Below, in pieces: positions 1,537 through 16,986 of a DNA stretch of 25,818 nt. A model generated the notes under the pieces. It was not told the origin of the DNA. It did no database searches and saw only the letters and a list, made by a program, of their open reading frames with translations. The stretch is taken from positions 1-25,818 of the forward strand of contig JAAYWX010000005.1 in assembly GCA_012516225.1 (NCBI GenBank), in the 5' to 3' direction. Origin of the DNA: Clostridiales bacterium. GTDB taxonomy: Bacteria; Bacillota; Clostridia; Oscillospirales; Oscillospiraceae. How positions within the stretch are numbered: position 1 is the stretch's first letter; each line of letters starts with the position of its first letter. The translations under genes were made by a program, and so were the position numbers.

Positions 1537-2007
1537 TTAGATATACAGCATAAATATGACCCCGACAGATATTAAAATAACGCCTATTACACGGCAAACT
1601 GCAACAACCCTGCGTATGGGGGTGTGCTGAAAAGTTTCAAACATCGAAATTGGGTAGGGAAGAAAAACAAAAGCTGCACCCGCAATGACAACGCCGATGT
1701 TCATAAGAAAAGACATACCGGCGGAAAGCGAACTTATTAGTATGCACGCGGCAGAGGCTAAAATTAGAAGATACATATACTTTTTCAGTCTTTTGTCATT
1801 CTCCACATAGCTTTCCGCGGCTTCTTTGCAGGAAAGTCCGCAAACAGGAAAACTTCTTGTTTTAACCCTCGCCTTGGCTATAACTGTATCATTGCCGTTG
1901 ACGGAATTCCCGCAATAAACACACCTGTCGCCGCCGGCAAACTCGATTTTATCATTTTTTGTACTTTTATTCGGCATTTTTTTTGGCAGGCGCTTTTGCT
2001 GCTTCAT
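1537..2007 (-). CDS. Hypothetical membrane protein with an N-terminal CxxC...CxxxC putative metal-binding motif
   Basis: CVYC-x23-CGLSC followed by about 3 hydrophobic segments. ATGA overlap with the ptsI stop codon. An alternative start at MPNKST is possible. Confidence 0.75.
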   Translation of the reverse strand: MKQQKRLPKKMPNKSTKNDKIEFAGGDRCVYCGNSVNGNDTVIAKARVKTRSFPVCGLSCKEAAESYVENDKRLKKYMYLLILASAACILISSLSAGMSFLMNIGVVIAGAAFVFLPYPISMFETFQHTPIRRVVAVCRVIGVILISVGVIFMLYI

Positions 2008-3734
2008 ATGCCCAGTTCCTCCAATATTTTTTCAAGCATATTCTTTGCGTCGGATATTTTGCCGGAGGATAGAATTTTATCGGTCTTTTCCATAATATCA
2101 CTTTTGGTGACTTGTGTCACTATATATTTTGTACGTCCGACAAGTGCCGGAGCAACGGAAAGCTCGTCTACACCAAAAGCACACCAGAGAGGTATAAGGC
2201 GCGGCTCGGATGCCGTTTCTCCGCAGATTCCCACCTCGATATTGTTTGCATGGGCATTGTCACATACGGTTTTTACGGCGCGCAGAACAGATACATTGCA
2301 GCTGTCATACAAATACTGTACCCGTTCATTCATGCGGTCTGTTGCCGTAGTGTACTGGATGAGGTCGTTTGAACCTATGCTGAAGAAATCGGAATGTTTT
2401 GCGAGAGCATCGGAAATCAGAACGGCTGCGGGAGTTTCAACCATTATGCCGACAGGGATGTCGGGATTGAAGGGGAAGCCCTTTTCCTCAAGTTCTGCCA
2501 TGCACTCCCTAACAAGCTCTTTGGCGCGGAGAAGCTCCTCAAGGCTTACTATCATGGGAAACATTATTTTCACATTGCCGAAAGCACTTGCGCGAAGAAT
2601 GGCGCGGAGCTGGGTTTTAAACATCTCTGTACGATCCAAGCAAAGGCGGATGGCGCGATATCCGAGGAAAGGATTGCTTTCTTTCGGCAGATCCATATAG
2701 CCAAGCTGTTTGTCTCCGCCGATGTCAAGTGTGCGGATGATAAGCTCTTTGCCGGCAGTACGAACCGCCATATCCTTATATACCTCGAACTGCTCGTCCT
2801 CGGTAGGGTAATCCGAATGACCCATATAGAGGAATTCCGTACGGAAAAGTCCGACTCCGTCACAGCCTGCCGCATCGAACGTTGCTATGCTTTCTTTATC
2901 TCCCGAATTCACGTTTACCCTTACTGGAAAGCCGTCCTTTGTGGCCGCCGGCTTAATGCGGCACTCATCATAAACTGCCTTCATCTTTGCGGCCTGACCG
3001 CTCTTAGCTTCAAATTCAGCAAGCTTTTTTGAGTCCGGGGAAACAACTGCAACACCTGCCGAACCGTCTACAAGAACTGTTTCGCCGGAAGCCAGCCGGT
3101 CAAGCATGGGACCGCAGCCGACAACGGCGGGAATACCGAGTGCCTTTGCAAGAATAACAGTGTGCGAGGTAACTCCGCCGCGCTCCGTAACCATGCCTTT
3201 AAGTCTGCTCCGGTCAAGACGGACGGTATCGGACGGAGTGAGGTCTTCGGCGAATATTATGAGATCATCGCCGACGGCTCCGGCAAAGGGGTCTCCGGAA
3301 CTGATCCCCTGAAGCTCTGACATAAGCTCACGGCAGACGTTGTTTATGTCGGCCGCGCGGGCTTTAAGATAATCGTCGTCAACGACGGAGAAGGCTTCCT
3401 CCACCTCTGCACGTTTTTTCTCGATAGCATAGGAAGCGCATACGTTTTCAGAAAGTATAATGTCCTTTACCTGACCGAAAAAAACGTCGTCTTGAATTAT
3501 TTCCTGGTAAGCTTCAAAAATTTCAGCACTCTTGTCACCGTGGGAAACACGTGCTTCCTCTGCCAGTTTTTTCAAGGTTTCATTGTATTTCTGGCGGCCG
3601 TTTTCCATAGCTTCAATTTCCGCGGCCGTATCGGAAACAAATTTTTTTTCAAGAGACAGGCTGCCTGTGCGGAATATAACGGCGTGGCCTCGCGCGCAGC
3701 CTGATGCGGCTCCAAGACCTTTTATTTCTGTCAT
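2004..3734 (-). CDS. ptsI: PEP-protein phosphotransferase (PTS Enzyme I)
   Basis: GGVTSHTVILAKALGIPAVVG (phospho-His), GVGLFRTEFLY, RTLDIGGDK, NPFLGYRAIR, GSNDLIQY, GICGE; 576 aa. Confidence 0.98.
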   Translation of the reverse strand: MTEIKGLGAASGCARGHAVIFRTGSLSLEKKFVSDTAAEIEAMENGRQKYNETLKKLAEEARVSHGDKSAEIFEAYQEIIQDDVFFGQVKDIILSENVCASYAIEKKRAEVEEAFSVVDDDYLKARAADINNVCRELMSELQGISSGDPFAGAVGDDLIIFAEDLTPSDTVRLDRSRLKGMVTERGGVTSHTVILAKALGIPAVVGCGPMLDRLASGETVLVDGSAGVAVVSPDSKKLAEFEAKSGQAAKMKAVYDECRIKPAATKDGFPVRVNVNSGDKESIATFDAAGCDGVGLFRTEFLYMGHSDYPTEDEQFEVYKDMAVRTAGKELIIRTLDIGGDKQLGYMDLPKESNPFLGYRAIRLCLDRTEMFKTQLRAILRASAFGNVKIMFPMIVSLEELLRAKELVRECMAELEEKGFPFNPDIPVGIMVETPAAVLISDALAKHSDFFSIGSNDLIQYTTATDRMNERVQYLYDSCNVSVLRAVKTVCDNAHANNIEVGICGETASEPRLIPLWCAFGVDELSVAPALVGRTKYIVTQVTKSDIMEKTDKILSSGKISDAKNMLEKILEELGI

Positions 3735-3749: not shown

Positions 3750-4394
3750 CTATTTTTGACGGTAATTCTGGAACTGCCCAAGTACGACCTTAAGGTCATC
3801 ATCGCTTAAAAGTACAGGTTTGCCGGCGGTGCGGGCATAGTAATAGATTTGTGAAACGAATTCTATCTGCTGCGCGATATCCATGGTATAGGGCAGAGTG
3901 CCGCCGCAGGTCAAAAGTCCGTGATTGCCGAGCAGGCAGGCGTAATGGTCGCTGCCCATTGCGTTAAAAGCCGCTTCCGCAAGCTCATAGGTGCCAAACT
4001 GTACATAGGGGATGCAGGGAACGTCAGCACCGGAATAAGCGATAAGATAGTGCAGGGGTTCAATGCTCCAGTGCAGGCATGCCAGAGTTGTCGCAAAGGT
4101 TGAGTGCGTGTGTACAACAGCGTTTATTCCCGGTCTTCTCTGGTAAAATATTCTGTGCATATCATATTCGCTCGACGGTTTTCTGTCGCCGTCAACCTTT
4201 TCGCCGTCGGGCGTGAGAACTACGACATCTTCAGGCTTTGTAAGGTAATAGTCCATACCTGAGGGGCTTATTGCCATGAGATTTTCTTTAGGATTAAATA
4301 CGCTCAGATTGCCAAAAGTTCCGACGGTAAGACCAAGCTCCACCATTTTTTTGCCGTATTCGACAACCATTTCACGTTCTTCCTGCAGTATCAT
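3750..4394 (-). CDS. Class II aldolase/adducin family, FucA-type
   Basis: GNLS, SPSG, KPSSE, VVHTHS, LLGNHG. Start placed at ATG 4394 (ATGA overlap with the upstream gene, AAGGAG RBS). Confidence 0.9.
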   Translation of the reverse strand: MILQEEREMVVEYGKKMVELGLTVGTFGNLSVFNPKENLMAISPSGMDYYLTKPEDVVVLTPDGEKVDGDRKPSSEYDMHRIFYQRRPGINAVVHTHSTFATTLACLHWSIEPLHYLIAYSGADVPCIPYVQFGTYELAEAAFNAMGSDHYACLLGNHGLLTCGGTLPYTMDIAQQIEFVSQIYYYARTAGKPVLLSDDDLKVVLGQFQNYRQK

Positions 4395-5488
4395 TCCAAA
4401 CACACTCCTTTTATTTTGTCGAAGTTTACTATTCGATCTGTAAGTCCTTTTTCGATTATTTTATCTGTTTCGCGCATGAGAAGATACGGAGACATAGGTA
4501 TGGCGTCCACTGTTGCCCCCGCAATATGCGGTGTTATCACAACGTTGTCAAGACCGGAAAAACCACTGTTTTCCGGCAAGGGCTCTTTATCGAAAACATC
4601 CAGTGCTGCACCGGCTATGCGGTGGTTTTTAAGTGTATCGATAAGGTCTGCCTGGTTTACAAGACCTCCCCTTGATGTATTTATAAAATATGCGGTAGGC
4701 TTCATCAAATCAAAATATTTTTTATTTATAATCCCTTCGGTTTCCGGAGTGAGCCTGAGGTGCAGGCTTATTATATCCGCTGTTGAGAACAGCTCTTCCA
4801 TTGAACCTACCATTTTTATATCTGCAAGGCCGTTCCTCTCCAGTCGTTCTTTTGAAATATATTCGTCAAAGGCGATCAGGGATACGCCAAGCGCCTTTAG
4901 GCGCACAGCCAGTTCGATGCCGATATTTCCTATGCCGATAAGTCCGACCGTCATATTTGACAGGGTAGATGTATATTCGGAATTTGGATATACTTTTTCC
5001 CATTTTCCGTCTATAAGAAGATGATGGGACGTGGAAATGTTCCTTGTTACGCTCAAAATAAGCCCAAGTGCGAATTCGGCGACGGGGATGGCGTTTCTTA
5101 TTACATTGACCACAGGTATACCGCGGTTGTTTGCGGCATTCAAGTCAATATGCTCAAGACCACCTCTGCAGGTCAATATGGCCTTGAGATTAGGGGCTTT
5201 TTCTATTAATGCAGCGGGAACGGGGTTGAAATGCGTTACCAGAACTGTGCAGTCTTCCATAAGCTGCTCTAATCCGTCAGCCCATGCTTCGGCCTCAGCT
5301 CCGTGACGTTCGATATTAAGCTGACGTTCCGCAAATTCGCTTTTGTCGGGCGTTCCCCAGTATGCTTTGCTTATTTTGCCTATGCTGATTTTTGAGGAGC
5401 GCACCGCCGCTTCCATTGTGTCGGGGGAAACAAAAGCGTCCCCGACCAAAACAATATTCTGAGGTTTTTTTGTGAGTGTGTTTAGCAT
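4391..5488 (-). CDS. D-isomer-specific 2-hydroxyacid dehydrogenase fold (SerA-like) oxidoreductase
   Basis: GLIGIGNIG, INTSRGGLV, LDVFDKEP, TPHIAGAT. Start placed at ATG 5488 (GGAGGT RBS). Confidence 0.9.
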   Translation of the reverse strand: MLNTLTKKPQNIVLVGDAFVSPDTMEAAVRSSKISIGKISKAYWGTPDKSEFAERQLNIERHGAEAEAWADGLEQLMEDCTVLVTHFNPVPAALIEKAPNLKAILTCRGGLEHIDLNAANNRGIPVVNVIRNAIPVAEFALGLILSVTRNISTSHHLLIDGKWEKVYPNSEYTSTLSNMTVGLIGIGNIGIELAVRLKALGVSLIAFDEYISKERLERNGLADIKMVGSMEELFSTADIISLHLRLTPETEGIINKKYFDLMKPTAYFINTSRGGLVNQADLIDTLKNHRIAGAALDVFDKEPLPENSGFSGLDNVVITPHIAGATVDAIPMSPYLLMRETDKIIEKGLTDRIVNFDKIKGVCLE

Positions 5489-5507
5489 GGATACCTCCAA
5501 TAATATG

Positions 5508-5541
5508 GAAAGCCGCTGTTGTTTTATCAACAGCGGCTTTC
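5508..5541 (-). terminator. Intra-operon 14 bp perfect hairpin (attenuator or mRNA stabiliser)
   Basis: GAAAGCCGCTGTTG-N6-CAACAGCGGCTTTC between the IIC gene and the dehydrogenase; only a short U-tract on the minus strand. Confidence 0.5.
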
Positions 5542-5589: not shown

Positions 5590-7020
5590 TCAGACAACCT
5601 GCGGCTCGCTGCCGTTTCCTGCGTCCTCAACGCCGTAAGTTTCAAGCCAGTTGACAATGGCTTCTTTGTGCTTTTTGAACAGGAAGTAGAGGACAAAGTA
5701 AAGAATTACAACCGCACCGATGATAATCGGGTTCTGGGAATAGAACGCATAGAAGAGACCCGCCATCAAGGGGTGGCACATGATACCGAAGCTGATAACA
5801 TACATTGTTGCGTTTTCTGGAAGAACAAATCCGGCCTGAACGGCAACGTCCGTAAATGTTGGAGCAAGCTGGGAAGCTATGATAAGACCAAGGCTGAACC
5901 AGATTGCACCGGTGATAAGGCTCTTTGCAATGTTGCCGTGGGAAATGCAGACGAAAATCTCAACCATGTACGGCAGAGCAACAAGGTCAAGCATGGGGAG
6001 AACTTTGTTGCCGGGAAGAATGAAAGCAAGGAGAAGCATAATGGGGATGAGAAGAATGCCGGTTACGAGGGTGTTGGGTTCGCCGTAACCTGCGGCATCG
6101 TTAACCGACAGATACCACTCGCGGTTTTTGCCGCTTTCGATAGCTTTTGCTTTGTAAGCGTCCGTGAGGGAAGAGAATGCAGACGCGAAAATTCCTCCGA
6201 CTTTCGGGAAAACAGCCATGACGGCCGCGGTGGATACTGCTGAAGCTGTGATTTTTCCCCAGCTTTCAAGTGCGCCAAGAGCGTTGAAGTAAGCGATAAT
6301 GCCTATCAGAGCGCCGATTACAAGACCGATGAACATGGGCTCACCAAGAAGTCCGAATCTTTTCTGGATTGTTTCGGCATCAAGCTTTATTTTGTTGAAG
6401 CCTATTTTGCCGAGCAGCCAGTTCATCAGGATTGCGAAAGGCACGCCTTCCAAATGGTGAGGAGCTGTCATGCAGCAGCTTGGATACTGGTAGTGTGTGG
6501 ACCAGCGTTTTGCTGCAACTTCGCTGAACAAAAGAATGTAGAGAAGCTGCATAACCATGACCGCAAGAGCAAGCCACATGCTTTTTGTGAGAAGATAAAG
6601 CATGGAGCCCCAAACCATGAAGGAATAGTTGTTCCAAAGGTCACTGGCCATGAAAACGTTTGTCCATTTTACAAGGAAGAGTACTATCTGCAGCACTATA
6701 GCAATGCCGATGAATACAAGACCTACTGTTGTTGAATAGGCAATTACGGAAGTGGACTGCCAGCCGGTATCAAGAACTGGCAGGTTGACGCCTGAACTTT
6801 CTACCATTCGGGTTACGACGGGCGCGATTATCCCGCCGTAGCTGTTGATGACGAGGTTGAATCCAGTTAAACCGACTGCGCAGAGTAAAGCGGAATTAAA
6901 TGCGCTTTTCGGCTTTACGCCAAGGAACAGAGCGATAATGAACAGGATCAGTGGAACGAACACAGGCGCTCCGAGCGTTGAGAATACGTTGCTTAGACTT
7001 TGAAAAAATGAGCCCAACAA
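5590..7020 (-). CDS. PTS galactitol-family EIIC permease (GatC-like)
   Basis: 476 aa polytopic membrane protein with DTGW, DLWNNYSF, LLGEPMFIG and ILPGNKVLPMLDL, which match GatC-family motifs. TTG start with GAGGAGG RBS. Confidence 0.92.
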   Translation of the reverse strand: MLGSFFQSLSNVFSTLGAPVFVPLILFIIALFLGVKPKSAFNSALLCAVGLTGFNLVINSYGGIIAPVVTRMVESSGVNLPVLDTGWQSTSVIAYSTTVGLVFIGIAIVLQIVLFLVKWTNVFMASDLWNNYSFMVWGSMLYLLTKSMWLALAVMVMQLLYILLFSEVAAKRWSTHYQYPSCCMTAPHHLEGVPFAILMNWLLGKIGFNKIKLDAETIQKRFGLLGEPMFIGLVIGALIGIIAYFNALGALESWGKITASAVSTAAVMAVFPKVGGIFASAFSSLTDAYKAKAIESGKNREWYLSVNDAAGYGEPNTLVTGILLIPIMLLLAFILPGNKVLPMLDLVALPYMVEIFVCISHGNIAKSLITGAIWFSLGLIIASQLAPTFTDVAVQAGFVLPENATMYVISFGIMCHPLMAGLFYAFYSQNPIIIGAVVILYFVLYFLFKKHKEAIVNWLETYGVEDAGNGSEPQVV

Positions 7021-7092: not shown

Positions 7093-7386
7093 TTATTTAG
7101 CGTTCAGAATTTTAAGGCAGTCGTCGATAACCTGCTGTTCGGCAAGCCCTGTCAGCAAACCAACAGCGTTAACCTTAGGAATGCCGTAATCCTTGTAAAC
7201 AGGGGAAACACAAGCGATCAATGAGAAACCGCCGGCAGCCAAGGCCGATTCAACCGAATTCGGACTTGCTTCAACAGGAGTTACTGCATAGCCGTGCTTT
7301 GCAAGCTTTTCTTTGAGCTTGTTTGCGACCATGGCGGAACTTACCGTACCCGAGCCGCAGACACATAGGATTTTGACATTTTTCAT
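7093..7386 (-). CDS. PTS galactitol-family EIIB (GatB-like)
   Basis: KILCVCGSGTVSS phospho-Cys loop; 97 aa. Confidence 0.92.
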   Translation of the reverse strand: MKNVKILCVCGSGTVSSAMVANKLKEKLAKHGYAVTPVEASPNSVESALAAGGFSLIACVSPVYKDYGIPKVNAVGLLTGLAEQQVIDDCLKILNAK

Positions 7387-7435: not shown

Positions 7436-7891
7436 TTACCCCATATATTTCATTGCCGCTTCGTAAAGCTTGTCCTTATCGGAGGCGGCGCTCAGCTCTT
7501 CTACCGCTTCTTCGTTGGTGAATACGCGCATTACTTTTTGGTGCGTGTCAAGCTGTGCGTCCGGATCTTTTATGGCCATCATGAAAATCAGCTGCGCTTG
7601 AACTTTTGTATCAGGATCACCCATGTGCCTGAATTCCACCGGGTCGGAGAGCTTTGCCACGCAAACGGCTGGAATATTAACATGTATGCCAGCGGTATGG
7701 GGCATGGCAACTCCTATGGTTTTAAGCTGCAGCCCGGTAGGATATTCGGTTTCTCTCTCCAAAACGGCAGGCAGGTAAGTATCTTTGACATAGCCGCCGT
7801 TTATAAGGTAAGCGCCGATGGTTTTTATTGCGTCTTCGGCATTTTCGGCTTTAACGCCGCAGACTATAAGATCTTTGGTTATAGTGCTCAA
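7436..7891 (-). CDS. PTS EIIA, fructose/mannitol/galactitol type (GatA-like)
   Basis: VLERETEYPTGL and VAMPH (phospho-His). TTG start with AGGAG RBS. Confidence 0.93.
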   Translation of the reverse strand: MSTITKDLIVCGVKAENAEDAIKTIGAYLINGGYVKDTYLPAVLERETEYPTGLQLKTIGVAMPHTAGIHVNIPAVCVAKLSDPVEFRHMGDPDTKVQAQLIFMMAIKDPDAQLDTHQKVMRVFTNEEAVEELSAASDKDKLYEAAMKYMG

Positions 7892-7905: not shown

Positions 7906-8166
7906 CTATTCGGTCAGCCCATTGATAAAGGATATAAGCTCTTCGCCTACCAGATTTTCGTTTTCGCCTTCAACTATAACATTAACTTCAGTTCCGCACT
8001 TTATACCTGCGGAAAGCAGTGAAATGATGCTCTTAGGATCAATGCTGCTGCCTCCGACTTCAATAGTGATTTTTTCGGGGAATTTTTTGCAAAAAGCTGT
8101 AAGCTGCGATGCGGGACGAGCATGCAGACCAGTGGGATTTTTGATTGTAGTTGCCTGTTTAAACAT
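7906..8166 (-). CDS. ptsH: HPr phosphocarrier protein
   Basis: GLHARPA (His15) and KSI (Ser46 motif); 86 aa. Confidence 0.95.
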   Translation of the reverse strand: MFKQATTIKNPTGLHARPASQLTAFCKKFPEKITIEVGGSSIDPKSIISLLSAGIKCGTEVNVIVEGENENLVGEELISFINGLTE

Positions 8167-8266: not shown

Positions 8267-9205
8267 ATGGATGACAAAAAAGAACTTTTGATCCGCGTTG
8301 CGGAACTGTACTATGAGGAAAACCTAAACCAGAACGACATAGCAAAAATCCTTAATACTTCAAGACCGACAGTATCGCGGCTTCTTGACGAGGCGAAAGA
8401 TACCGGCGTTGTGGAAATTATTGTCCACAGTCCTATTTTGAAAGATGCGCAGCTTGCGTATGCTCTTCGCAAAAAACTTGGCCTGAGGGACGCTGTTGTC
8501 GTTTCGGGTGAATACAAATACGAGAAAGCAATCCGCCGCTGCTGCGAAACAGCGCTTCAGTATTTCTATGCGATCATGGAGAACAACACCACCATAGGGA
8601 TAAGCTGGGGAACCGTACCTCACCAGTTTTGCGAAATGCTTGAAGACCGTGAGTATTATAATGTCAATGTCGTCCAGATGGTCGGCTGTCTTGGAACGGG
8701 GAACCCAAAGCTTGATGGGCTCGAACTCGCGCTTCGCATATCAAGAAAGCTTGGCGGAACATACTCCAACATATATGCTCCCGTATATGTGGAGAACAAA
8801 ATTGTCCATGATTATCTTATGGCTGAGCCGCAGATAGCGGCGACAATTAAGAAAGCTATGCATACTGACATAATTATTACAGGAGTAGGGTCATTTGACG
8901 CAGGTACTTCACTGCAGCTTTCCGGAAACCTGAACGATAAGGACCGGATGGAGCTTATCGAACAGGGGGCTGTCGGACATCTTCTTGCCAGACCTTATGA
9001 CAAAGACGGAAATGAGATAATCCAGAGAGGACGATATACTATAGGCGCTCCGCTGGAGGCAATGAAGCATGCTCAGTGGTCGGTCGGAGTAAGCGCGGCA
9101 GAGTTTAAGGCTGAAGCCGTGCTCGCGGCGGTCCGCGGGGGATATCTCAACACGCTCGTCGTTGATGAAATACTTGCAAAGAAGCTTTTGGAGTTGGCCG
9201 ACTGA
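8267..9205 (+). CDS. SorC/DeoR(Gram-positive)/LsrR-family sugar-binding transcriptional regulator
   Basis: N-terminal 'VAELYYEENLNQNDIAKILNTSRPTVSRLL', IGISWG, VQMVG, and C-terminal 'AAVRGGYLNTLVVDE'. Confidence 0.95.
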   Translation: MDDKKELLIRVAELYYEENLNQNDIAKILNTSRPTVSRLLDEAKDTGVVEIIVHSPILKDAQLAYALRKKLGLRDAVVVSGEYKYEKAIRRCCETALQYFYAIMENNTTIGISWGTVPHQFCEMLEDREYYNVNVVQMVGCLGTGNPKLDGLELALRISRKLGGTYSNIYAPVYVENKIVHDYLMAEPQIAATIKKAMHTDIIITGVGSFDAGTSLQLSGNLNDKDRMELIEQGAVGHLLARPYDKDGNEIIQRGRYTIGAPLEAMKHAQWSVGVSAAEFKAEAVLAAVRGGYLNTLVVDEILAKKLLELAD

Positions 9206-9326: not shown

Positions 9327-10373
9327 TCAATCCATTCCAGGATTGCAGCATATGACTGCTTTAACGCCTTCTCCATTGAGCGAGGCATTGAATGCATCGC
9401 GCCAGTCTTTAAGATCCGTGATAAGAGTTACGATTTTTTCTGGCACTACCAGTCCTTCTTTAAGCAGATGAATTGAAGTCACCCAAGAACTGGGCTTTTG
9501 GCTGCGTGAACCTACATATACTATTTCTTTATGCAGAATATAATCGGCACGTATTGGAACTTTAGCATCGGCGAAAACGCCCATTTGAACAACTTTGCCC
9601 TTACGACGGGTTATTTCAAGCGCTTTGTTCGCTGCGGCGACAGAACCCGAACATTCAAACGAAATGTCAACTCCGACTCCATTCGTAAGTTCTTTCACAA
9701 TTTCGGAAAGATCTTCTTTTTCTTGGTTTACAACAATGTCCGCACCGTTGGCTTTGGCAATGGCAAAGCGTTCAGCATCTGTGGAAAGACCTGCAACTAT
9801 TACCGTGGCTTTTAGGGACTTTGCCACTTGGGCCACCATCTGTCCGATAGCTCCGGCGCCGAAAATACAAACGACATCTCCCTTTTTGACATCACCTTTT
9901 TCGATAACTGCATGGACGCCGCAGGCGAGAGGTTCGGTAAGGGAAGCGGATAAAAGACTTACATTATCGGGAAGAATATGAACGCTTTCTTCTCTGCTCA
10001 CCAAATATTCCGCCATACTTCCGTTTATCTGCGTGCCTATGCCCTGACGGTTTCCACAAAGGTTATAATCCTTGCTCAGACAGCTTGGACATATGCCGCA
10101 GGTTTTAAAAGTCGTTTCGCTGGTTACTCGGTCTCCAACCTTAACATTTTTTACGTCTGGCCCTACGGCTACAACTATGCCGGAAAACTCATGGCCCAAA
10201 ACTACAGGCGGCTTCGTGCTGGAATAAGTTCCTTTGAAAGCATGGAGGTCGGTTCCGCAGACGCCGCTGTATGCAATTTTTATTTTTACCAAGTCGCCAA
10301 CGGCTTCCGGTTCTGGAATCTCTGTATAAATCATATTATCATAGCCGCTGGCTGTTTTAACTACCGCTTTCAT
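9327..10373 (-). CDS. Zn-dependent medium-chain polyol(-phosphate) dehydrogenase (sorbitol DH/GatD-like)
   Basis: GVCGTDLH, LGHEFSG, structural-Zn motif CGICPSCLSKDYNLC, EPLAC, GAGAIG. Start placed at ATG 10373 (MKAVVK). Confidence 0.93.
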   Translation of the reverse strand: MKAVVKTASGYDNMIYTEIPEPEAVGDLVKIKIAYSGVCGTDLHAFKGTYSSTKPPVVLGHEFSGIVVAVGPDVKNVKVGDRVTSETTFKTCGICPSCLSKDYNLCGNRQGIGTQINGSMAEYLVSREESVHILPDNVSLLSASLTEPLACGVHAVIEKGDVKKGDVVCIFGAGAIGQMVAQVAKSLKATVIVAGLSTDAERFAIAKANGADIVVNQEKEDLSEIVKELTNGVGVDISFECSGSVAAANKALEITRRKGKVVQMGVFADAKVPIRADYILHKEIVYVGSRSQKPSSWVTSIHLLKEGLVVPEKIVTLITDLKDWRDAFNASLNGEGVKAVICCNPGMD

Positions 10374-10398
10374 GTTAACCCCCATCATTGTTATTGTT

Positions 10399-10561: not shown

Positions 10562-10590
10562 TTGACATTTGTTCAGTAATGTGAAATTAT
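10562..10590 (+). promoter_or_regulatory. Candidate operator, copy B, overlapping a probable -35 of the transketolase-like operon
   Basis: TTGACATTTGTTC-AGTAA-TGTGAAATTA. Perfect TTGACA; a weak TG-extended -10 (AATTAT) lies 17 bp downstream. Confidence 0.55.
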
Positions 10591-10701: not shown

Positions 10702-11604
10702 ATGTCAGACATTAAATATTCAAACGAGCAGATCGCGCGGGCGGCAACCAATATCCGCAAGCAGATCCTCGGCATAGCCCTCGAAAGGGGAGGGTGTTAT
10801 CTCACTCAAGCGTGTTCATCGGCCGAGATAGTAGCCACATTATATATGGATATACTCAATATCGGACCAAGTCTTGGAAACCCGGAAGCACAGCCTTTCC
10901 CGGGAGTCCCTTCTCCGGACAACATGGATTATCCGAAAGGCTCGCTTTATAACGGGGCGCATGATCCGGACAAAGACCGTTTCTTTGTTTCCTGTTGCCA
11001 TTACGCATCCGTTATTTACTGCGCTCTTGCGGAGTGCGGCAGAATTTCACACAGCGCACTCAAAAAATTCAATGTAGACGGATGGAACATGGAGATGATA
11101 GGAGCGGAGCACTCTCCCGGGTTTGAAAACACCGCAGGCTCTCTCGGGCAAACCGTTTCCATTGCCGCTGGTACAGCGCATGCATATAAACTTAAAGGCT
11201 GCACAGGAAAAATTTACTGTATGCTTTCCGATGGGGAACTTGAGGAAGGCCAGGCGTGGGAATGCTTCCAGGCAGCAGCATTCTATAAACTTGATAACTT
11301 TGTCATTTATGTCGATGTAAACGGACAACAGGTTGAAGGCTGGACAAAGGATGTTATGAACATTGAACCCATGATTGAACGCATGAAGGCTTTCGGATGG
11401 GAAGCGGTGGAAGTAAACGGCCATGATATAGATGCCCTTAAAGCCGCGGCGAAAACGCCCCATGAAGGCAAACCACTTATGATTCTTTGCAAAACTTCAC
11501 CGGCACAGGGAATTCCTCTTTTGGAAAAGATGATCCCGAAGCACTTTGTGACGATTACAGAGGCCGACAGAGCAGAATTTAAAAAGTTTTATGACGAAAT
11601 GTAA
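10702..11604 (+). CDS. Transketolase-like ThDP enzyme, N-terminal (ThDP-binding) subunit, atypical
   Basis: DRFFVSCCH, GSLGQ, SDGELEEGQAWE...N (ThDP/Mg motif), VNGHD. Start placed at ATG 10702 (GGAAGGGAG RBS). Confidence 0.9.
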   Translation: MSDIKYSNEQIARAATNIRKQILGIALERGGCYLTQACSSAEIVATLYMDILNIGPSLGNPEAQPFPGVPSPDNMDYPKGSLYNGAHDPDKDRFFVSCCHYASVIYCALAECGRISHSALKKFNVDGWNMEMIGAEHSPGFENTAGSLGQTVSIAAGTAHAYKLKGCTGKIYCMLSDGELEEGQAWECFQAAAFYKLDNFVIYVDVNGQQVEGWTKDVMNIEPMIERMKAFGWEAVEVNGHDIDALKAAAKTPHEGKPLMILCKTSPAQGIPLLEKMIPKHFVTITEADRAEFKKFYDEM

Positions 11605-11619
11605 AGTGAGGTGGCAGCA

Positions 11620-12609
11620 ATGAAAATAGAAACAAATACACATTCAAAAAACATTCTTAGATTTGCTGAAAAGCACCCGGAAGTAGTTGTTATGTCGGCT
11701 GATTTGGGCACATCATGCGAAGTTAAGGAATTTGCGAAAGTTTATCCGGACCGTTATTTTTCCATGGGGATTGCCGAGCAGAACATGTGCTCATGGGCCG
11801 CAGGGCTTGCAAGAGAAGGTTTCCGCCCGATGCTGCACACGTTCGGCGTGTTCCTGTACCGCCGCATACTTGACCAGATTGAAATGAGTCTGGCTTATCC
11901 CAATCTGCCGGTTGTTCTTATTGGTTTTGTGCCGGGAATAACAACTCCGGGCGGCGTTTCTCACCAGTCCACAAATGATATAGGCGTGCTCCGTACTGTT
12001 CCTAATATGGCTATTTTCGATATCGGTGATGCAACGGAGATAGAAGGTGTGCTCGATATTGCTTATAATTTCAACGGCCCTGTATATATAAGAATGCTCC
12101 GCAAAGACGTACCCCGTTTCTTCCCGGCAAATGAGCCGATGCAATTCAACCGTGCACGCATATTGTCGGAAGGAACCGACATTGCGCTTCTTTCCTCATC
12201 AGTCTGCACGGAAGAAGCAATGCGAGCCACCGCGGCACTGAAGGCTAAGGGACTCTCAATACAGCATTTGCATGTATCCACTCTCAAGCCTTTTACGGAT
12301 CCTCAAGTGGTTGAAGCCTGTGAAAAAGCAAAATACGGCGTTATAACGATTGAAAATCACACCGTTATAGGAGGGCTTGGAACTGCGGTGGCGGAAGTGA
12401 TGGCGGAAAACGGAATAGGCAAGAAACTTGTCAAGGTAGGCTTGCAGGATACCTATGCACACGGAGCCTCCAAAATGTACCTTCTCAGAAAATATGGTAT
12501 GGACGCTATGACTCTGATAAAGGGCGTTGAGAAGCTGACAGGCGAGAATTTCGGAATTGAAGAACACGATCTTGAGGAAATCCGTTTTGAAGACTTCACT
12601 ACCGTATAA
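11620..12609 (+). CDS. Transketolase-like enzyme, C-terminal (pyrimidine-binding and C-terminal domain) subunit
   Basis: SADLGTS, MGIAEQNM (catalytic Glu), SHQ, GPVYIR, ENHTVIGGLG. ATG 11620 with GAGGTG RBS. Confidence 0.92.
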   Translation: MKIETNTHSKNILRFAEKHPEVVVMSADLGTSCEVKEFAKVYPDRYFSMGIAEQNMCSWAAGLAREGFRPMLHTFGVFLYRRILDQIEMSLAYPNLPVVLIGFVPGITTPGGVSHQSTNDIGVLRTVPNMAIFDIGDATEIEGVLDIAYNFNGPVYIRMLRKDVPRFFPANEPMQFNRARILSEGTDIALLSSSVCTEEAMRATAALKAKGLSIQHLHVSTLKPFTDPQVVEACEKAKYGVITIENHTVIGGLGTAVAEVMAENGIGKKLVKVGLQDTYAHGASKMYLLRKYGMDAMTLIKGVEKLTGENFGIEEHDLEEIRFEDFTTV

Positions 12610-13273
12610 AAAGAACGGGTATAAAGCCTGTATTTTTGATCTGGACGGTACGGTTGTAAATACTTTGCCGACAGTTCATCACTACTGCAACATTACTCTG
12701 GATCGATTCGGATTCTCCGCCATAAGCGAGCTGCAGTGCCGGAATTTATGCCGCCTGCCAATTAAAGAGTTCTATCATGAGCTGCTCAGATTGGGAGGTT
12801 GTCCGCCTGAAAATATTGAGAAGCTTGCGCCGCAGGCGCGCGATTATGATATAAAACGCTACCTTGAGAACCCTGCCGTAGGCAGTATGCCATATGAGGG
12901 AGTACCCGAACTTCTGCAAGAATTGAAGAGCAGAGGAATTATCCTCGGTGTTCTGACGAACAAGCCGCACGCCATAGCACAGTCGCTTATAGGCAGCCTG
13001 TATCCCGGTATTTTTGACAGCGTAACGGGACAGACTCCCGATACCATATCCAAACCTGATCCGAGATGCCTTTTAAATTACATCGGAGACATGGGACTTG
13101 CTAAAACCGAATGCCTTTATGTAGGAGATAGTGACGTTGATATGAAAACGGCAAAGGCGGCCAGAGTAGATGTTGCTGCAGTTACATGGGGATTTCAGTC
13201 CAGAGAACATTTGCTTGAATATAATCCGGAATATGTTTTCGACAAACCCGCAGAATTACTGAAACTGTTTTGA
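12587..13273 (+). CDS. HAD-superfamily phosphatase (Gph-like)
   Basis: IFDLDGT, LTNK, KPDP, VGDSDVD. Start uncertain: TTG 12587 (GAGG 9 nt upstream) or TTG 12557. Both overlap the upstream gene. Confidence 0.9.
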   Translation: MKTSLPYKKNGYKACIFDLDGTVVNTLPTVHHYCNITLDRFGFSAISELQCRNLCRLPIKEFYHELLRLGGCPPENIEKLAPQARDYDIKRYLENPAVGSMPYEGVPELLQELKSRGIILGVLTNKPHAIAQSLIGSLYPGIFDSVTGQTPDTISKPDPRCLLNYIGDMGLAKTECLYVGDSDVDMKTAKAARVDVAAVTWGFQSREHLLEYNPEYVFDKPAELLKLF

Positions 13274-13314: not shown

Positions 13315-13995
13315 ATGTTTGAAGCACAAAAGCGCGAAATTATAAAAGCGGGAATAAGCCTTGATCGTTACGGACTGATTGCCCTTTCGGGCGGCAACGT
13401 AAGCGCCCGCATGGAAACTGGAGAAATACTCGTAACGCCATCAGGAATGATCTATGAAGATATGGTTGAAGACGATATCGTCGTAATGGATATTGACGGA
13501 AACATCATCGAAGGTTCGCGCAAGCCGTCCTCCGATACAGACGCAATTCTTTATATTTTCAAACACCGCCCCGATTTGAAAGCGGTTATTCATACGCACC
13601 AGCCCTATGCGACTGCCATAAGCCTCATTGAGGATGAGTTCCGCGCAGATCTGACCACTCTTGCAAATGCATGCGCCGGAAGCGTAAAGGTTACGCCTTA
13701 CAGTTCCCCCGGAAGCGAGGATATGGGCGTTGACACCGTAAAGTATCTTGGCAGCAGTCTGGCGGTTATTCTTGCTCATCACGGAGTTATTACAGTAGGT
13801 ACCTCGGTTAAGCAGGCGCTCTATGCCGCAGTGTATATGGAAGAAGCTGCGCGAGGCTATCTTGCCGCAAGAGCCGTTGGACCGATTAAGCACCTTTCGG
13901 ATGCCCAAATTCAGCAGGCTGTCGATGTCTTCAAGTATGTCGGACAGGGAACAGGCAGAATACCGAAAGAAATGACAAAGCGCATTACCAATTAA
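13315..13995 (+). CDS. Class II aldolase fold, AraD/UlaF-type (L-ribulose-5-P 4-epimerase-like)
   Basis: GGNVS, TPSG, KPSSDT (Asp, as in AraD, rather than the Glu of FucA), IHTHQ, AHHG. AGGAGG RBS. Confidence 0.85.
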   Translation: MFEAQKREIIKAGISLDRYGLIALSGGNVSARMETGEILVTPSGMIYEDMVEDDIVVMDIDGNIIEGSRKPSSDTDAILYIFKHRPDLKAVIHTHQPYATAISLIEDEFRADLTTLANACAGSVKVTPYSSPGSEDMGVDTVKYLGSSLAVILAHHGVITVGTSVKQALYAAVYMEEAARGYLAARAVGPIKHLSDAQIQQAVDVFKYVGQGTGRIPKEMTKRITN

Positions 13996-14430: not shown

Positions 14431-15090
14431 TTATCTGAATATGTTCATATCGCAGTCATAAAGCTGAGTGCGAGTAAACGCCCCAAAGTCTGGAGCAAGT
14501 TCTGGAGCAAGATGCTCCAGCGCCGACACAAGAAGCTCCGGATTGAGAGTGGGATTCTGTGCGGAAACAATGGCTTTAAGCCTTACGAAGCTGCCGCTCG
14601 AATCAAATTCTATGCTTTTTATAGACGGAGCAATGTCAACTTCGGAAATGCCGCTTTTGTTTTTTTTAGGTATTATTATGCTGTTTTGGGAAAAGAAATC
14701 CATCAACCCCGAAACCTTATCGTCGGCACTGCGGCCGTCGTATTCAAAAGCGCCGTCCACATCCAGCCACTTTATGTCTTTGAATTTAGTCTGAGGTTCA
14801 TACGCTTCAAGAACGGAAATTCCTTCAGGAAGAGCCTTGTTAAGCAAAAAAGGAATTTCGGTGAGACTCATAAATTCGGAAAGTCTGAAATCCATAAGTT
14901 CGCAGCAGCTTGCAGTTCCGACAGAAAGAGGGAGCGCAAATGAAATCTGCGCGTGGGGGTTAAATCCCTCGCTGTACTTAAGCTTCAACCCTGCGCGGAA
15001 GAAAGCGCGCTGCATAGTGCGCATGAGGTCAAGGTGGGAGATATATATGGCACGGCCAGTCTTTGAAAATTTCAGCCTTAAATTATCCAT
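14431..15090 (-). CDS. Radical SAM-linked protein (TIGR03936/DUF2344-like)
   Basis: LRLKFSKTGRAIYISHLDLMR, YSEGFNPH, ALPLSVG. Overlaps the end of the radical SAM gene, the typical pairing. Confidence 0.9.
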   Translation of the reverse strand: MDNLRLKFSKTGRAIYISHLDLMRTMQRAFFRAGLKLKYSEGFNPHAQISFALPLSVGTASCCELMDFRLSEFMSLTEIPFLLNKALPEGISVLEAYEPQTKFKDIKWLDVDGAFEYDGRSADDKVSGLMDFFSQNSIIIPKKNKSGISEVDIAPSIKSIEFDSSGSFVRLKAIVSAQNPTLNPELLVSALEHLAPELAPDFGAFTRTQLYDCDMNIFR

Positions 15091-16918
15091 CGCAGCGCCC
15101 TCCTTTCATCAGCAAGACAGCACCACAGTTTTCACATTTTTTGCGGCAGTCGGGAGAAAGCAGACCTTTATAGCACATTTCGCGCTCATGCCGGAAAAAT
15201 TCGGGTTTTACACCTATATCTATACGGCTCCACGGAAGAACTTCATCAAAGGGGCGTTCCCTGCACGCATAAAATTTCGGATCAAGTCCGCATTTTTTAA
15301 AGGCGGTCATCCAACGTTCAAAAGAGAAGTATTCGCTCCACGAATCAAGTTTTCCGCCGTTTTTCCAAACTTCTTCGATAACGGTACCAATACGCCTGTC
15401 ACCTCGGGAAAGTACGGCTTCAACAAAGCTTGTATCGGCATCATGCCAGTTATAGGTTATGGCCTTCGCTCTCATATTGCCTCGCAGCAACGCTACACGT
15501 CTGCGGTATTCGTCCATATCAACCTGTGCTTCCCACTGAAAAGGAGTATGGGGCTTCGGAACAAAGCAGGAGGTGGACACTGTAATGTTTATGCCCTTGG
15601 ATTTGTTTGACGAATATGATTTCCAAGCGGAAAGGACCTTCATGGCAAGACCGCCTATGGCAAGAACGTCTTCGGCTGTTTCGGTCGGAAGTCCAAGCAT
15701 GAAATACAGCTTTATGTTATTCCAGCCGCCTTCAAAGGCTATGCGGCAGGTGGAAAGGATGTCTTCCTCACGTACGTTTTTGTTTATCGCATCGCGCAGT
15801 CTCTGAGTACCGGCTTCCGGTGCAAAAGTAAGACCGCTTTTTCTAACCTGATGAACTTTGTCCATAAGCTCCATTGAAAAATTATCTGCACGGAGGGAAG
15901 GAAGTGAAAGTCCAATACTCTTGGGAATGCAGAAATCCAGAAGACCGTCGCAAAGGCCGTTTAAAGATCTGTAATCGCTTGTACTGAGTGATGACAAGGT
16001 TATCTCCTGATAACCGGTATTTTCGAGGGAATCGATACCTTGGTTTATAAGTCTATTGACATTTCTGGATCGGACGGGACGATAAACAAAACCGGCCTGG
16101 CAAAAGCGGCATCCGCGAATACAGCCCCGGAAAAGCTCGAGAGTTACTCGGTCGTGGACAATTTCCGTTGAAGGCACAACAGGTTTGACGGGGAAATAAC
16201 TGCCGTCAAAATCGGTTACAATACGGCGGGTTACATATTCCGGGGCGTTCTCGAGAGTTCTAAGCTCTTTCAGGGTTCCGTCCTCATTATATACGGGTTC
16301 GTAAAGTGAAGGAACATAAATGCCTTCAATTTTGGCGGCTTCAGATAAAAACTCTTTCTTGCTCATACCGGTTTTCTTTGCTTCGCGCAAAAGCAAAAGA
16401 AGTTCTCTGTCCGCGTCCTCCCCCTCGCCTATAACACAGAGGTCAAAAAAATCTGCCATTGGCTCCGGATTGCAGCAGCTTGTCCCGCCGGCAAAAACAA
16501 GCGGGGTAAGCTCGGGCCTGTCTTTGCTTCTTATAGGGATTCCTGCAAGGTCAAGCATATTGAGAACATTGGTGTAGGCCATTTCATATCCGATTGAAAA
16601 GCCGATTGCATCGAATTCCGCAAGAGGGTCACCGCTTTCAAGCGCCCAAAGGGGAATATTGTTTGAGCGCATTTCATTTTCCATATCCCCCCAAGGTGCG
16701 AAAACGCGTTCGCACCAGACACCGTCCATCTCGTTTATTATTCCATATAATATCCTTATGCCAAGATTTGACATTCCTATTTCATAGGTATCCGGAAAAC
16801 AAAGGGCCATGCGTATATCGACACTGGCCTTGTCTTTTATTATCTGGTTATATTCGCCTCCGGTGTAGCGCGCGGGCTTTTGCACCTTTGGCAATATGCG
16901 GAGAAGTTTTTTGTCCAT
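15083..16918 (-). CDS. TIGR03960-like B12-binding-type radical SAM protein
   Basis: KPARYTGGE, FPDTYEIGMSNLG, CIRGCRFC (CxxxCxxC), LTFAPEAG, FVPKPHTPFQW. Start placed at ATG 16918 (MDKKL); the ORF opens at 16957. Confidence 0.92.
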   Translation of the reverse strand: MDKKLLRILPKVQKPARYTGGEYNQIIKDKASVDIRMALCFPDTYEIGMSNLGIRILYGIINEMDGVWCERVFAPWGDMENEMRSNNIPLWALESGDPLAEFDAIGFSIGYEMAYTNVLNMLDLAGIPIRSKDRPELTPLVFAGGTSCCNPEPMADFFDLCVIGEGEDADRELLLLLREAKKTGMSKKEFLSEAAKIEGIYVPSLYEPVYNEDGTLKELRTLENAPEYVTRRIVTDFDGSYFPVKPVVPSTEIVHDRVTLELFRGCIRGCRFCQAGFVYRPVRSRNVNRLINQGIDSLENTGYQEITLSSLSTSDYRSLNGLCDGLLDFCIPKSIGLSLPSLRADNFSMELMDKVHQVRKSGLTFAPEAGTQRLRDAINKNVREEDILSTCRIAFEGGWNNIKLYFMLGLPTETAEDVLAIGGLAMKVLSAWKSYSSNKSKGINITVSTSCFVPKPHTPFQWEAQVDMDEYRRRVALLRGNMRAKAITYNWHDADTSFVEAVLSRGDRRIGTVIEEVWKNGGKLDSWSEYFSFERWMTAFKKCGLDPKFYACRERPFDEVLPWSRIDIGVKPEFFRHEREMCYKGLLSPDCRKKCENCGAVLLMKGGRCDG

Positions 16919-16986
16919 ATCACACATCCGTTTTTTAAGTGCCGTCAGTTTCGGCAATCTATTTTTCCTAAGTATTTTATACCTTT

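Follow-up and report, generated by a model that had tools for sequence, protein, structure and literature searches.

A clade of split transketolase-like enzymes with a replaced substrate pocket and a predicted link to 1-deoxy-pentulose phosphate metabolism

The split transketolase-like gene pair

The window analysed here is the whole of a 25,818 bp stretch of contig JAAYWX010000005.1 (assembly GCA_012516225.1) from a Clostridiales bacterium of the family Oscillospiraceae. It includes two adjacent genes for the N and C subunits of a split transketolase-like enzyme dependent on thiamine diphosphate (ThDP). A first-pass annotation had described an intact cofactor machinery, five replaced substrate-binding residues and a possible new reaction. 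The two genes and a promoter-like site ahead of them are listed below, with residues numbered as in Escherichia coli TktA.

10702-11604, + strand: N subunit (PP domain) of the split transketolase-like ThDP enzyme; Tyr for H26, Ile for H100, 27-aa insertion
11620-12609, + strand: C subunit (Pyr and C domains); NTH in place of SRKA, Phe for H461, Pro-Gly for E468-D469, Lys after R520
10562-10590, + strand: promoter-like site upstream of the transketolase-like operon (TTGACA-17-AATTAT, 10 of 12 matches, TG before the -10; consensus match only)

The open reading frame of the N subunit (300 aa) begins with ATG and has GGAAGGGAG upstream, and that of the C subunit (329 aa) has an alternative start, GTG at 11611. 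The N subunit belongs to Pfam Transketolase_N, with a match starting only at residue 89, and also gives a weak match to DXP_synthase_N, while the C subunit is composed of Transket_pyr and Transketolase_C. The nearest relatives of known structure are the chains of the split transketolase from Carboxydothermus: 6YAK for the N subunit (2e-34, residues 89-281 only) and 6YAJ for the C subunit (5e-60). Neither subunit passes any NCBIfam cut-off for transketolase or for the synthase (DXS) of 1-deoxy-D-xylulose-5-phosphate. The top model, NF004559, gives 165 bits for the N and 181 bits for the C subunit (cut-off 488), TIGR00232 gives 77 and 38 bits (cut-off 682), and the DXS model TIGR00204 gives 154 bits for the C subunit (cut-off 466). 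The phosphoketolase family XFP is absent from the Pfam matches of the window proteins.

The PP, Pyr and C domains, the ThDP/Mg motif and the cofactor-activating Glu of transketolase (EC 2.2.1.1) are all found in the pair, but neither the five-His set (H26, H66, H100, H261, H473) nor the sugar-phosphate set (R358, S385, H461, D469, R520) is complete. By fold and cofactor machinery the predicted enzyme is a member of the transketolase superfamily, and by its residues and curated scores it lies outside both transketolase proper and DXS.

Active-site residues and distribution of the clade

Residues were mapped against the annotated K-12 record of TktA and against the near-canonical split transketolase of the same genome (contig C141). 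The cofactor motifs are retained, SDGE...N aligning with D155/N185 and the Glu of GIAEQ with E411, as are H66, H261 and H473, which bears out the annotation on this point. S385 and R520 of the phosphate-binding set are also present. H26 is replaced by Tyr in the motif GCYLxQACS, as had been read, and this Tyr is invariant in the fetched loci. E468-D469 aligns with Pro-Gly and a one-residue deletion, which agrees with the Gly assigned to D469, and the insertion ahead of the DRF motif, put earlier at about 25 aa, measures 27 residues.

The assignments for the other three positions hold in part. H100 is Ile in the register of the same-length canonical split transketolase, as had been proposed, but Met in the E. 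coli/6YAK spacing; it is hydrophobic throughout and in either register, and the surrounding EMIGAEHSPG motif is invariant. R358 corresponds to the Asn originally given only in the alignment to E. coli, the canonical split-transketolase register placing Thr, Val, Leu or Ile there, and is basic in none. H461, for which Phe or Val had been offered, is Phe. In addition, Q521, beside the retained R520, is an invariant Lys, and an invariant His occupies the A360 position two residues past the Asn (NTH motif). The retention of R520 and S385, with the invariance of the new Lys and His, makes it probable that phosphate binding is rewired and not absent, and the distal phosphate site may have been rebuilt rather than lost.

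The canonical split transketolases (Carboxydothermus 6YAK/6YAJ and the copy on contig C141) share with the window pair the two-subunit PP plus Pyr/C layout, the ThDP/Mg motif, E411, H66, H261, H473, R520 and S385, and are its best sequence matches. They differ in that the first 88 residues of the window pair barely align and that H26, H100, R358, H461 and D469 are replaced and the 27-aa insertion added. Enzyme engineering has altered the same positions: variants of E. coli transketolase (H26Y and changes of D469) and Geobacillus H102L/H474S reportedly take pyruvate-type donors and substrates that lack a hydroxyl or a phosphate group. Such laboratory enzymes carry one or two mutations, whereas the set in the window is natural, invariant and retains H473.

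The pocket states are invariant among the subunit sequences from the ~80 fetched loci (53 + 7 for the N subunit, 46 + 11 for the C subunit), and the pocket motifs occur in nearly every one of the 120 closest homologues. This invariance across loci and homologues indicates that the predicted new pocket is under purifying selection and is not the product of drift.

Approximately 4,150 proteins match the N subunit. The closest 120 share 64-87% identity with it, come mostly from gut and rumen assemblies and span Oscillospiraceae, Lachnospiraceae, Butyricicoccaceae, Erysipelotrichaceae, Christensenellaceae, Coriobacteriia, Planctomycetota and Spirochaetota. Cultured carriers among the homologues are Caproicibacter fermentans EA1, Agathobaculum, Butyricicoccus, Khoudiadiopia and Sinanaerobacter. 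The 'YLxQACS' clade was defined here by the motifs G[CG]YLxQACS, E[ML]IGAEHSPG and GF[LV]PGxxTPGGxxHQ together with the 27-aa insertion. The window pair carries all of these features, which are common to the 120 closest homologues, and by them it is assigned to a tight clade found mainly in anaerobic Bacillota. In an exhaustive search of representatives at 50% identity, a few dozen clusters matched the N subunit over its full length, divergent N-terminus included. Several of these, at 43-47% identity, keep GGYLSQACS, E[ML]IGAEHSPG and GFLPGxTTPGGxTHQ, and some members in this range are a single fused chain of 661 aa. Past the full-length clusters, the matches are ordinary split transketolases that align only from residue ~88.

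One distant member, P0125 (N subunit 47% identical; loci L092 and L093), lies near genes for a GntR regulator, a CUT1 ABC transporter and a beta-hydroxyacid dehydrogenase, and the same two loci further hold crotonase-fold and ketopantoate-reductase-like proteins; a kinase is absent. From this neighbourhood as a whole, the wider motif family may include enzymes for unphosphorylated acids.

The near-canonical split transketolase of the same genome (contig C141, L006:1456-3224) has the SGHPG, GHAAP and GHP motifs and a DG..SHH block. It keeps H26, H66, H100, H261, D469, H473 and R520, carries Ala-Tyr at the place of H461-D462 of E. coli, and shows SHH instead of THQ. Halves of DXS are located on two contig ends of this assembly, which is 88% complete. 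Since the genome holds both of these enzymes, the window pair is, from its predicted products, a third and specialised member of the transketolase superfamily in this cell. The separate split transketolase and DXS, the failed NCBIfam cut-offs and the clade-wide invariant substitutions together support the earlier statement that the pair is not the pentose-phosphate transketolase of the cell.

Two mutually exclusive gene contexts

The genes around the pair form two blocks. On the minus strand, from 8166 down to 1537, are genes for HPr, EIIA, EIIB and EIIC of a phosphotransferase system (PTS), a SerA-like dehydrogenase, a class II aldolase, Enzyme I and a 156-aa protein. Next are a SorC regulator (+ strand), a divergent Zn-dehydrogenase (- strand) and the operon of the two transketolase-like genes, a HAD phosphatase gene and a second class II aldolase-fold gene.

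1537-2007, - strand: conserved 156-aa protein that closes the PTS operon, Cys-rich at its N-terminus and predicted to have membrane helices; conserved in 25 related loci
2004-3734, - strand: PTS Enzyme I inside the operon (TIGR01417, 566 bits, above cut-off)
3750-4403, - strand: DrdA-like class II aldolase, predicted 5-deoxyribulose-1-phosphate aldolase (6BTD/6BTG, 2.3e-71, 243 bits, full length)
4391-5530, - strand: SerA-like D-2-hydroxyacid dehydrogenase, for which oxidation of the carbon beside a phosphate ester is predicted (2-Hacid_dh_C, 7e-57)
5590-7020, - strand: galactitol-type PTS EIIC (EIIC-GAT TIGR00827, 258 bits, below cut-off)
7093-7386, - strand: PTS EIIB
7436-7891, - strand: PTS EIIA
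7906-8166, - strand: HPr (PTS-HPr, 1e-22)
8267-9205, + strand: SorC/DeoR-type sugar-phosphate-sensing regulator (Pfam Sugar-bind, 1e-50); conserved in 45 loci
9327-10388, - strand: Zn-dependent medium-chain dehydrogenase, predicted to oxidise the CH3-CHOH group of a deoxy-pentitol phosphate (ADH_N and ADH_zinc_N)
12557-13273, + strand: HAD-family phosphatase, phosphoglycolate-phosphatase-like (Pfam HAD_2, 3e-32; NCBIfam below all cut-offs); same position in 15 loci
13315-13995, + strand: AraD-like class II aldolase-fold protein, predicted 4-epimerase acting on 1-deoxy-L-ribulose-5-phosphate to give 1-deoxy-D-xylulose-5-phosphate (DXP) (Aldolase_II, 2e-49)

The structures 6BTD and 6BTG are of DrdA, a 5-deoxyribulose-1-phosphate aldolase (PMC6079011). 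Against the 243 bits to these, the window aldolase gives 185 bits to FucA of Streptococcus and 126 bits to FucA of E. coli, and it also gives 187 bits to a haloarchaeal ribulose-1-phosphate aldolase. It passes NCBIfam NF005302 (284 bits, cut-off 264) and carries the motif PSSE. For the AraD-like protein, which carries the AraD-type motif PSSD, the top NCBIfam model is an L-ribulose-5-phosphate 4-epimerase subfamily (192 bits, below the cut-off of 251). The top NCBIfam model for the Zn-dehydrogenase is threonine 3-dehydrogenase, below cut-off, and its relatives in the PDB are threonine, sorbitol, butanediol and galactitol-1-phosphate dehydrogenases, of which butanediol dehydrogenase is another enzyme that oxidises CH3-CHOH. 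The top NCBIfam and PDB matches of the SerA-like protein are phosphoglycerate dehydrogenases. The longest reading frame of the HAD phosphatase shares 53 bases (12557-12609) with the end of the C-subunit gene, and its real start is probably further downstream.

The neighbourhood analysis recommended for the 'YLxQACS' subfamily was made on 76 genome loci and further metagenome loci (85 in total, some redundant) after clustering of the reading frames, and it revealed two mutually exclusive contexts for one pocket. Type 1, found in the window, is made up of the polyol-type PTS, the Zn-dehydrogenase, the AraD-like 4-epimerase, the SerA-like dehydrogenase and the DrdA-like aldolase. Type 2 includes MtnK, MtnA and a RuBisCO-like protein (RLP), in two gene arrangements. 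The frequencies across the 85 loci were as follows.

Zn-dehydrogenase: 56 of 85 loci
AraD-like gene: 55 of 85 loci (58-77% identity; typically right downstream of the transketolase-like genes)
Gat-type EIIC: 42 of 85 loci
2-hydroxyacid dehydrogenase: 39 of 85 loci
window-type aldolase: 37 of 85 loci
MtnA: 12 of 85 loci
MtnK: 12 of 85 loci
RuBisCO-like protein: 11 of 85 loci

The RLP, MtnA and MtnK never occur in the same locus as the Zn-dehydrogenase/AraD-like set, and because of this mutual exclusion the two sets behave as alternative feeders of one enzyme. In variants of type 1, the PTS is exchanged for a ribose-type ABC system and an FGGY kinase, or for an FGGY kinase alone. The top matches of these kinases are xylulokinase (XylB) or autoinducer-2 kinase (LsrK), all below cut-off; both LsrK and XylB phosphorylate C5 of (deoxy)pentuloses.

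The type-2 MtnK (391 bits, cut-off 275) and MtnA (418 bits, cut-off 279) pass their equivalog models, and type-2 loci also hold a ribose-type ABC transporter and an RbsD/FucU mutarotase. The type-2 RLP aligns over its full length with the RLP structure 3QFW (1.4e-74), and gives ~150 bits to MtnW-type enolases and ~117 bits to Photo-type RLPs. In Parasporobacterium, the genes for the N subunit, the C subunit and the RLP form one operon with abutting ends. In the Scatomonas-type loci (L040, L086-L088, L095), the RLP operon is divergent from the transketolase-like genes, which are directly followed by DhaK/DhaL and a 185-aa membrane protein, and the genes beside that for the RLP encode a 291-aa class II aldolase-fold protein of a third kind and a PduL-like phosphotransacylase. 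In a tree of the concatenated subunits all type-2 enzymes form one clade (SH-aLRT 99) nested within type 1. As they form a single clade, the link to the RLP is read from the tree as having arisen once and then survived rearrangement with the pocket unchanged.

An MtnA gene scoring above cut-off is located at the end of contig C211 of the window's own genome (L091:3629-4618), and an RLP gene was not found in this 88%-complete assembly. In five Erysipelotrichaceae loci (L048, L052, L056, L058 and L017) a gene for AdhE, a bifunctional aldehyde/alcohol dehydrogenase of 876 aa, adjoins the cluster; this fits an acetaldehyde product, but could also reflect shared ancestry. A Na:alanine symporter in three loci raised the idea of an amino-acid-like substrate, which was rejected, the neighbours in L069 being a separate amino-acid cluster with diaminopropionate ammonia-lyase and a Cys/Met pyridoxal phosphate enzyme. 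The 156-aa protein of the window has no Pfam or NCBIfam match; it and the 185-aa type-2 protein are mutually unrelated small membrane proteins, neither with an informative match.

Proposed reaction and alternatives

In transketolase, H100 contacts the C1 hydroxyl of the donor, and hydrophobic replacements there allow pyruvate-type donors. Since this residue is Ile in every member of the clade, a substrate that lacks the C1 hydroxyl is proposed. Both feeder sets appear to converge on such a compound, a xylulose-5-phosphate analogue, and the putative enzyme is therefore suggested, at a probability that we put a little short of even, to cleave 1-deoxy- or 1-methylthio-D-xylulose-5-phosphate to glyceraldehyde-3-phosphate and a two-carbon unit. 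C1 of the substrate would bear H or S-methyl instead of OH. ThDP would add to C2, and breakage of the C2-C3 bond would release glyceraldehyde-3-phosphate. The two-carbon adduct would then leave as acetaldehyde or methylthioacetaldehyde, or, with the thio compound, might lose methanethiol to give an acetyl unit.

For type 1, the stereochemistry of the proposed route was worked by hand. A deoxy-pentitol such as 5-deoxyribitol would enter via the galactitol-type PTS and be phosphorylated on its sole primary hydroxyl; 5-deoxy-D-ribitol phosphorylated at this position is equally 1-deoxy-L-ribitol-5-phosphate. Oxidation by the Zn-dehydrogenase of the carbon beside the methyl group would produce 1-deoxy-L-ribulose-5-phosphate, the AraD-like 4-epimerase would convert this to DXP, and the transketolase-like enzyme would split DXP. 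The enzyme set needed to convert 5-deoxyribitol-1-phosphate to DXP is exactly the set found beside the transketolase-like genes. In a parallel branch, the SerA-like dehydrogenase would oxidise the carbon beside the phosphate and the DrdA-like aldolase would form dihydroxyacetone phosphate (DHAP) and acetaldehyde. For type 2, the RLP route would lead from 5-deoxy- or 5-methylthio-ribose to 1-deoxy- or 1-methylthio-D-xylulose-5-phosphate. DeepYkr RLPs isomerise 5-methylthioribulose-1-phosphate to 1-methylthio-xylulose-5-phosphate and 1-methylthio-ribulose-5-phosphate, and in Rhodospirillum and Rhodopseudomonas a cupin enzyme takes the product next (PMC5893883). As to a source of the substrates, rats reduce 5-deoxyribose to 5-deoxyribitol and excrete it, and E. 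coli excretes 5-methylthioribose, as has also been suggested for 5-deoxyribose (PMC6079011).

The first-pass annotation had put forward a 1-deoxy-, branched or non-phosphorylated compound from the adjacent pathway as a possible substrate. The 1-deoxy type gains support because the neighbours (the DrdA-like aldolase, AraD-like epimerase and methyl-carbinol-type dehydrogenase, or MtnK, MtnA and the RLP) point to 5-deoxy- or 5-methylthio-pentose chemistry, but nothing specific speaks for the other two. Branched sugars (apiose, hamamelose, methylerythritol) would keep the C1 hydroxyl or leave conserved neighbours unused, and routes for erythritol or threitol, and from galactitol to tagatose-6-phosphate, were considered and set aside.

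Several points weigh against the proposed cleavage. The hydroxyls at C3 and C4 and the 5-phosphate are all retained in DXP, yet none of H26, D469, R358 and H461, the residues that bind these groups in transketolase and in part in DXS, is present, and the replacements would better suit a smaller or less polar tail. The transketolase-like branch looks redundant, as the DrdA-like branch would already yield triose phosphate and acetaldehyde. The scheme gives no role to the HAD phosphatase of type 1 or to DhaK/DhaL and the PduL-like phosphotransacylase of type 2, and 5-deoxyribitol as a gut substrate is conjecture; 6-deoxyhexitols or autoinducer-2 would also give 1-deoxy ketose phosphates. The association with the RLP has a single evolutionary origin, and 3QFW is confirmed as an RLP but only tentatively assigned to the DeepYkr clade, as the protein of Rhodopseudomonas palustris.

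Among the alternatives, an ordinary pentitol or pentose route is thought quite unlikely. Ribitol-type substrates would be converted to L-ribulose-5-phosphate and by the epimerase to xylulose-5-phosphate, with D-ribulose-1-phosphate cleaved by the aldolase to DHAP and glycolaldehyde, and the transketolase-like enzyme would transfer the ketol from xylulose-5-phosphate to free glycolaldehyde, forming erythrulose. The same gene set fits if C1 bears OH, the window aldolase resembles a haloarchaeal ribulose-1-phosphate aldolase (187 bits), and a small unphosphorylated acceptor would account for the loss of R358, H461 and D469. DhaK-type kinases phosphorylate erythrulose in Mycobacterium, and DhaK/DhaL directly follow the transketolase-like genes in type-2 loci. 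However, the invariant Ile at H100 removes the C1-OH contact that a ketol donor requires, the phosphate site would still be required for a xylulose-5-phosphate donor, the scores of MtnK and MtnA are those of 5-methylthioribose enzymes, and the aldolase is nearer to DrdA than to any FucA. A DXS-like decarboxylase/carboligase, judged improbable, would receive a 2-oxo acid phosphate made by the SerA-like dehydrogenase from a phosphorylated sugar acid, the hydrophobic position 100 facing the carboxylate. It would be in keeping with the kinship of that dehydrogenase to phosphoglycerate dehydrogenases, with the 154 bits of the C subunit to DXS and with the distant member that lies, free of a kinase, beside a beta-hydroxyacid dehydrogenase, a ketopantoate-reductase-like protein and a GntR regulator. 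It is opposed by a permease of galactitol type, by the absence of the 2-hydroxyacid dehydrogenase from all type-2 loci and from many with the transketolase-like, Zn-dehydrogenase and epimerase genes, and by the MtnK/MtnA/RLP context, which supplies no 2-oxo acid. A low probability is likewise given to direct action on the free aldehyde released by the aldolase (methylthioacetaldehyde or acetaldehyde), with ThDP-bound elimination of methanethiol to an acetyl unit, or formation of acetoin. All five replacements would be accounted for together if the substrate were small and hydrophobic, and an aldolase of class II fold accompanies the enzyme in both contexts, with the PduL-like phosphotransacylase nearby in type 2 and AdhE in Erysipelotrichaceae type-1 loci. 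Such a reaction leaves without a role the RLP that is co-operonic with the transketolase-like genes and the epimerase and dehydrogenase that are always adjacent, while the retained R520 and S385 and the new invariant Lys and His suggest a bound phosphate.

The cleavage could be the same but the imported compound autoinducer-2 (4,5-dihydroxy-2,3-pentanedione, DPD), phosphorylated on C5 by the PTS or an LsrK-like kinase, reduced to 1-deoxy-pentulose-5-phosphate and then split. In favour are the nature of DPD, a natural 1-deoxy pentose derivative, a regulator of SorC/LsrR type, a Zn-dehydrogenase with butanediol-dehydrogenase relatives, and FGGY kinases of two PTS-less variants that match the autoinducer-2 kinase model best. 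This origin is nonetheless very improbable, as the scores are far below cut-off (133-144 bits for the kinase against 528), the binding protein matches RhaS and RbsB and not LsrB, a galactitol-type PTS for DPD is without precedent, and the DrdA-like aldolase and the epimerase are less well explained. There is hardly any probability that the pair is an auxiliary pentose-phosphate transketolase for a PTS sugar whose substitutions are neutral drift. Split transketolases are common in PTS operons, some of them genuine, such as TktC of Salmonella, and the cofactor residues are intact; against this, only three of the five catalytic His and two of the five substrate-binding residues remain, the replacements being invariant across many families and phyla, the scores are far under the transketolase cut-offs, and a near-canonical split transketolase is encoded elsewhere in the genome.

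The proposed cleavage of 1-deoxy- or 1-methylthio-D-xylulose-5-phosphate can be compared with known systems. DXS belongs to the same superfamily and handles a two-carbon unit with a methyl instead of a hydroxymethyl group, and its product, DXP, would be the substrate here. However, it is a single chain that decarboxylates pyruvate and is irreversible towards synthesis, while the window pair is split, and it keeps the Asp and His that the window pair has lost. AptA/AptB (apulose-4-phosphate transketolase of the D-apiose route) and SqwGH (sulfo-transketolase) are split transketolase homologues recruited to the catabolism of unusual sugars, and their donors keep the C1 hydroxyl. Compared by cluster description only, apiose isomerase and apulose kinase were not among the neighbours in the ~85 loci, and SqwGH-type neighbours (sulfoquinovose/sulfoerythrose isomerases, sulfoacetaldehyde reductase, exporter) were likewise not seen in the neighbourhoods. 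The DHAP shunt for 5-deoxyribose salvage (DrdK, DrdI and DrdA; MtnK, MtnA and Ald2) serves the same substrate family and is represented by the DrdA-like aldolase in the window and by MtnK/MtnA in type 2. It consists of a kinase, an isomerase and an aldolase only, whereas a ThDP enzyme, a polyol PTS, two dehydrogenases and an epimerase are added here. The methylsulfurylase that acts on 1-methylthio-D-xylulose-5-phosphate in the Rhodospirillum/Rhodopseudomonas methylthioadenosine-isoprenoid shunt directly follows the DeepYkr isomerase (PMC5893883), and its genomic position is held by the transketolase-like genes in type-2 loci. This cupin enzyme has an unrelated fold and forms DXP by glutathione-dependent removal of the methylthio group, without C-C cleavage.

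The papers found on split-transketolase biocatalysis deal with canonical enzymes, and the methionine-salvage reviews that were searched (2018; Chem Rev 2026) do not contain the word 'transketolase'. In a literature search that did not extend to most subscription papers, no biochemical assignment of the subfamily and no DXP-cleaving enzyme were found. If the cleavage is confirmed, it would be a new reaction of the transketolase superfamily and would give a function to a widespread clade of gut and rumen anaerobes' genes annotated as transketolase. RLPs, the 5-deoxyribose shunt and a polyol PTS would be joined in one O2-free scheme for disposal of S-adenosylmethionine waste, and for engineering the clade would offer, naturally combined, the substitutions made singly in the laboratory to widen the donor and acceptor scope of transketolase.

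A bolder form of the proposal, which seems unlikely, is that a '1-X-xylulose-5-phosphate ketolase' closes, in anaerobes of the gut and rumen, an O2-independent catabolism and salvage of the S-adenosylmethionine by-products 5-deoxyribose, 5-deoxyribitol and 5-methylthioribose, the ThDP-bound thio two-carbon unit being converted to methanethiol and acetyl phosphate. Expulsion of methanethiol would have analogues in phosphoketolase, which expels water, and sulfoacetaldehyde acetyltransferase, which expels sulfite. Sulfur and ATP would then be recovered with neither the cupin enzyme nor a nitrogenase-like system, and the PTS cluster of the window would be the first dedicated deoxy-pentitol pathway.

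Just downstream of the cluster, and with no visible tie to it, the minus strand at 14431-16957 encodes a TIGR03960 B12-binding radical SAM protein and its TIGR03936 partner.

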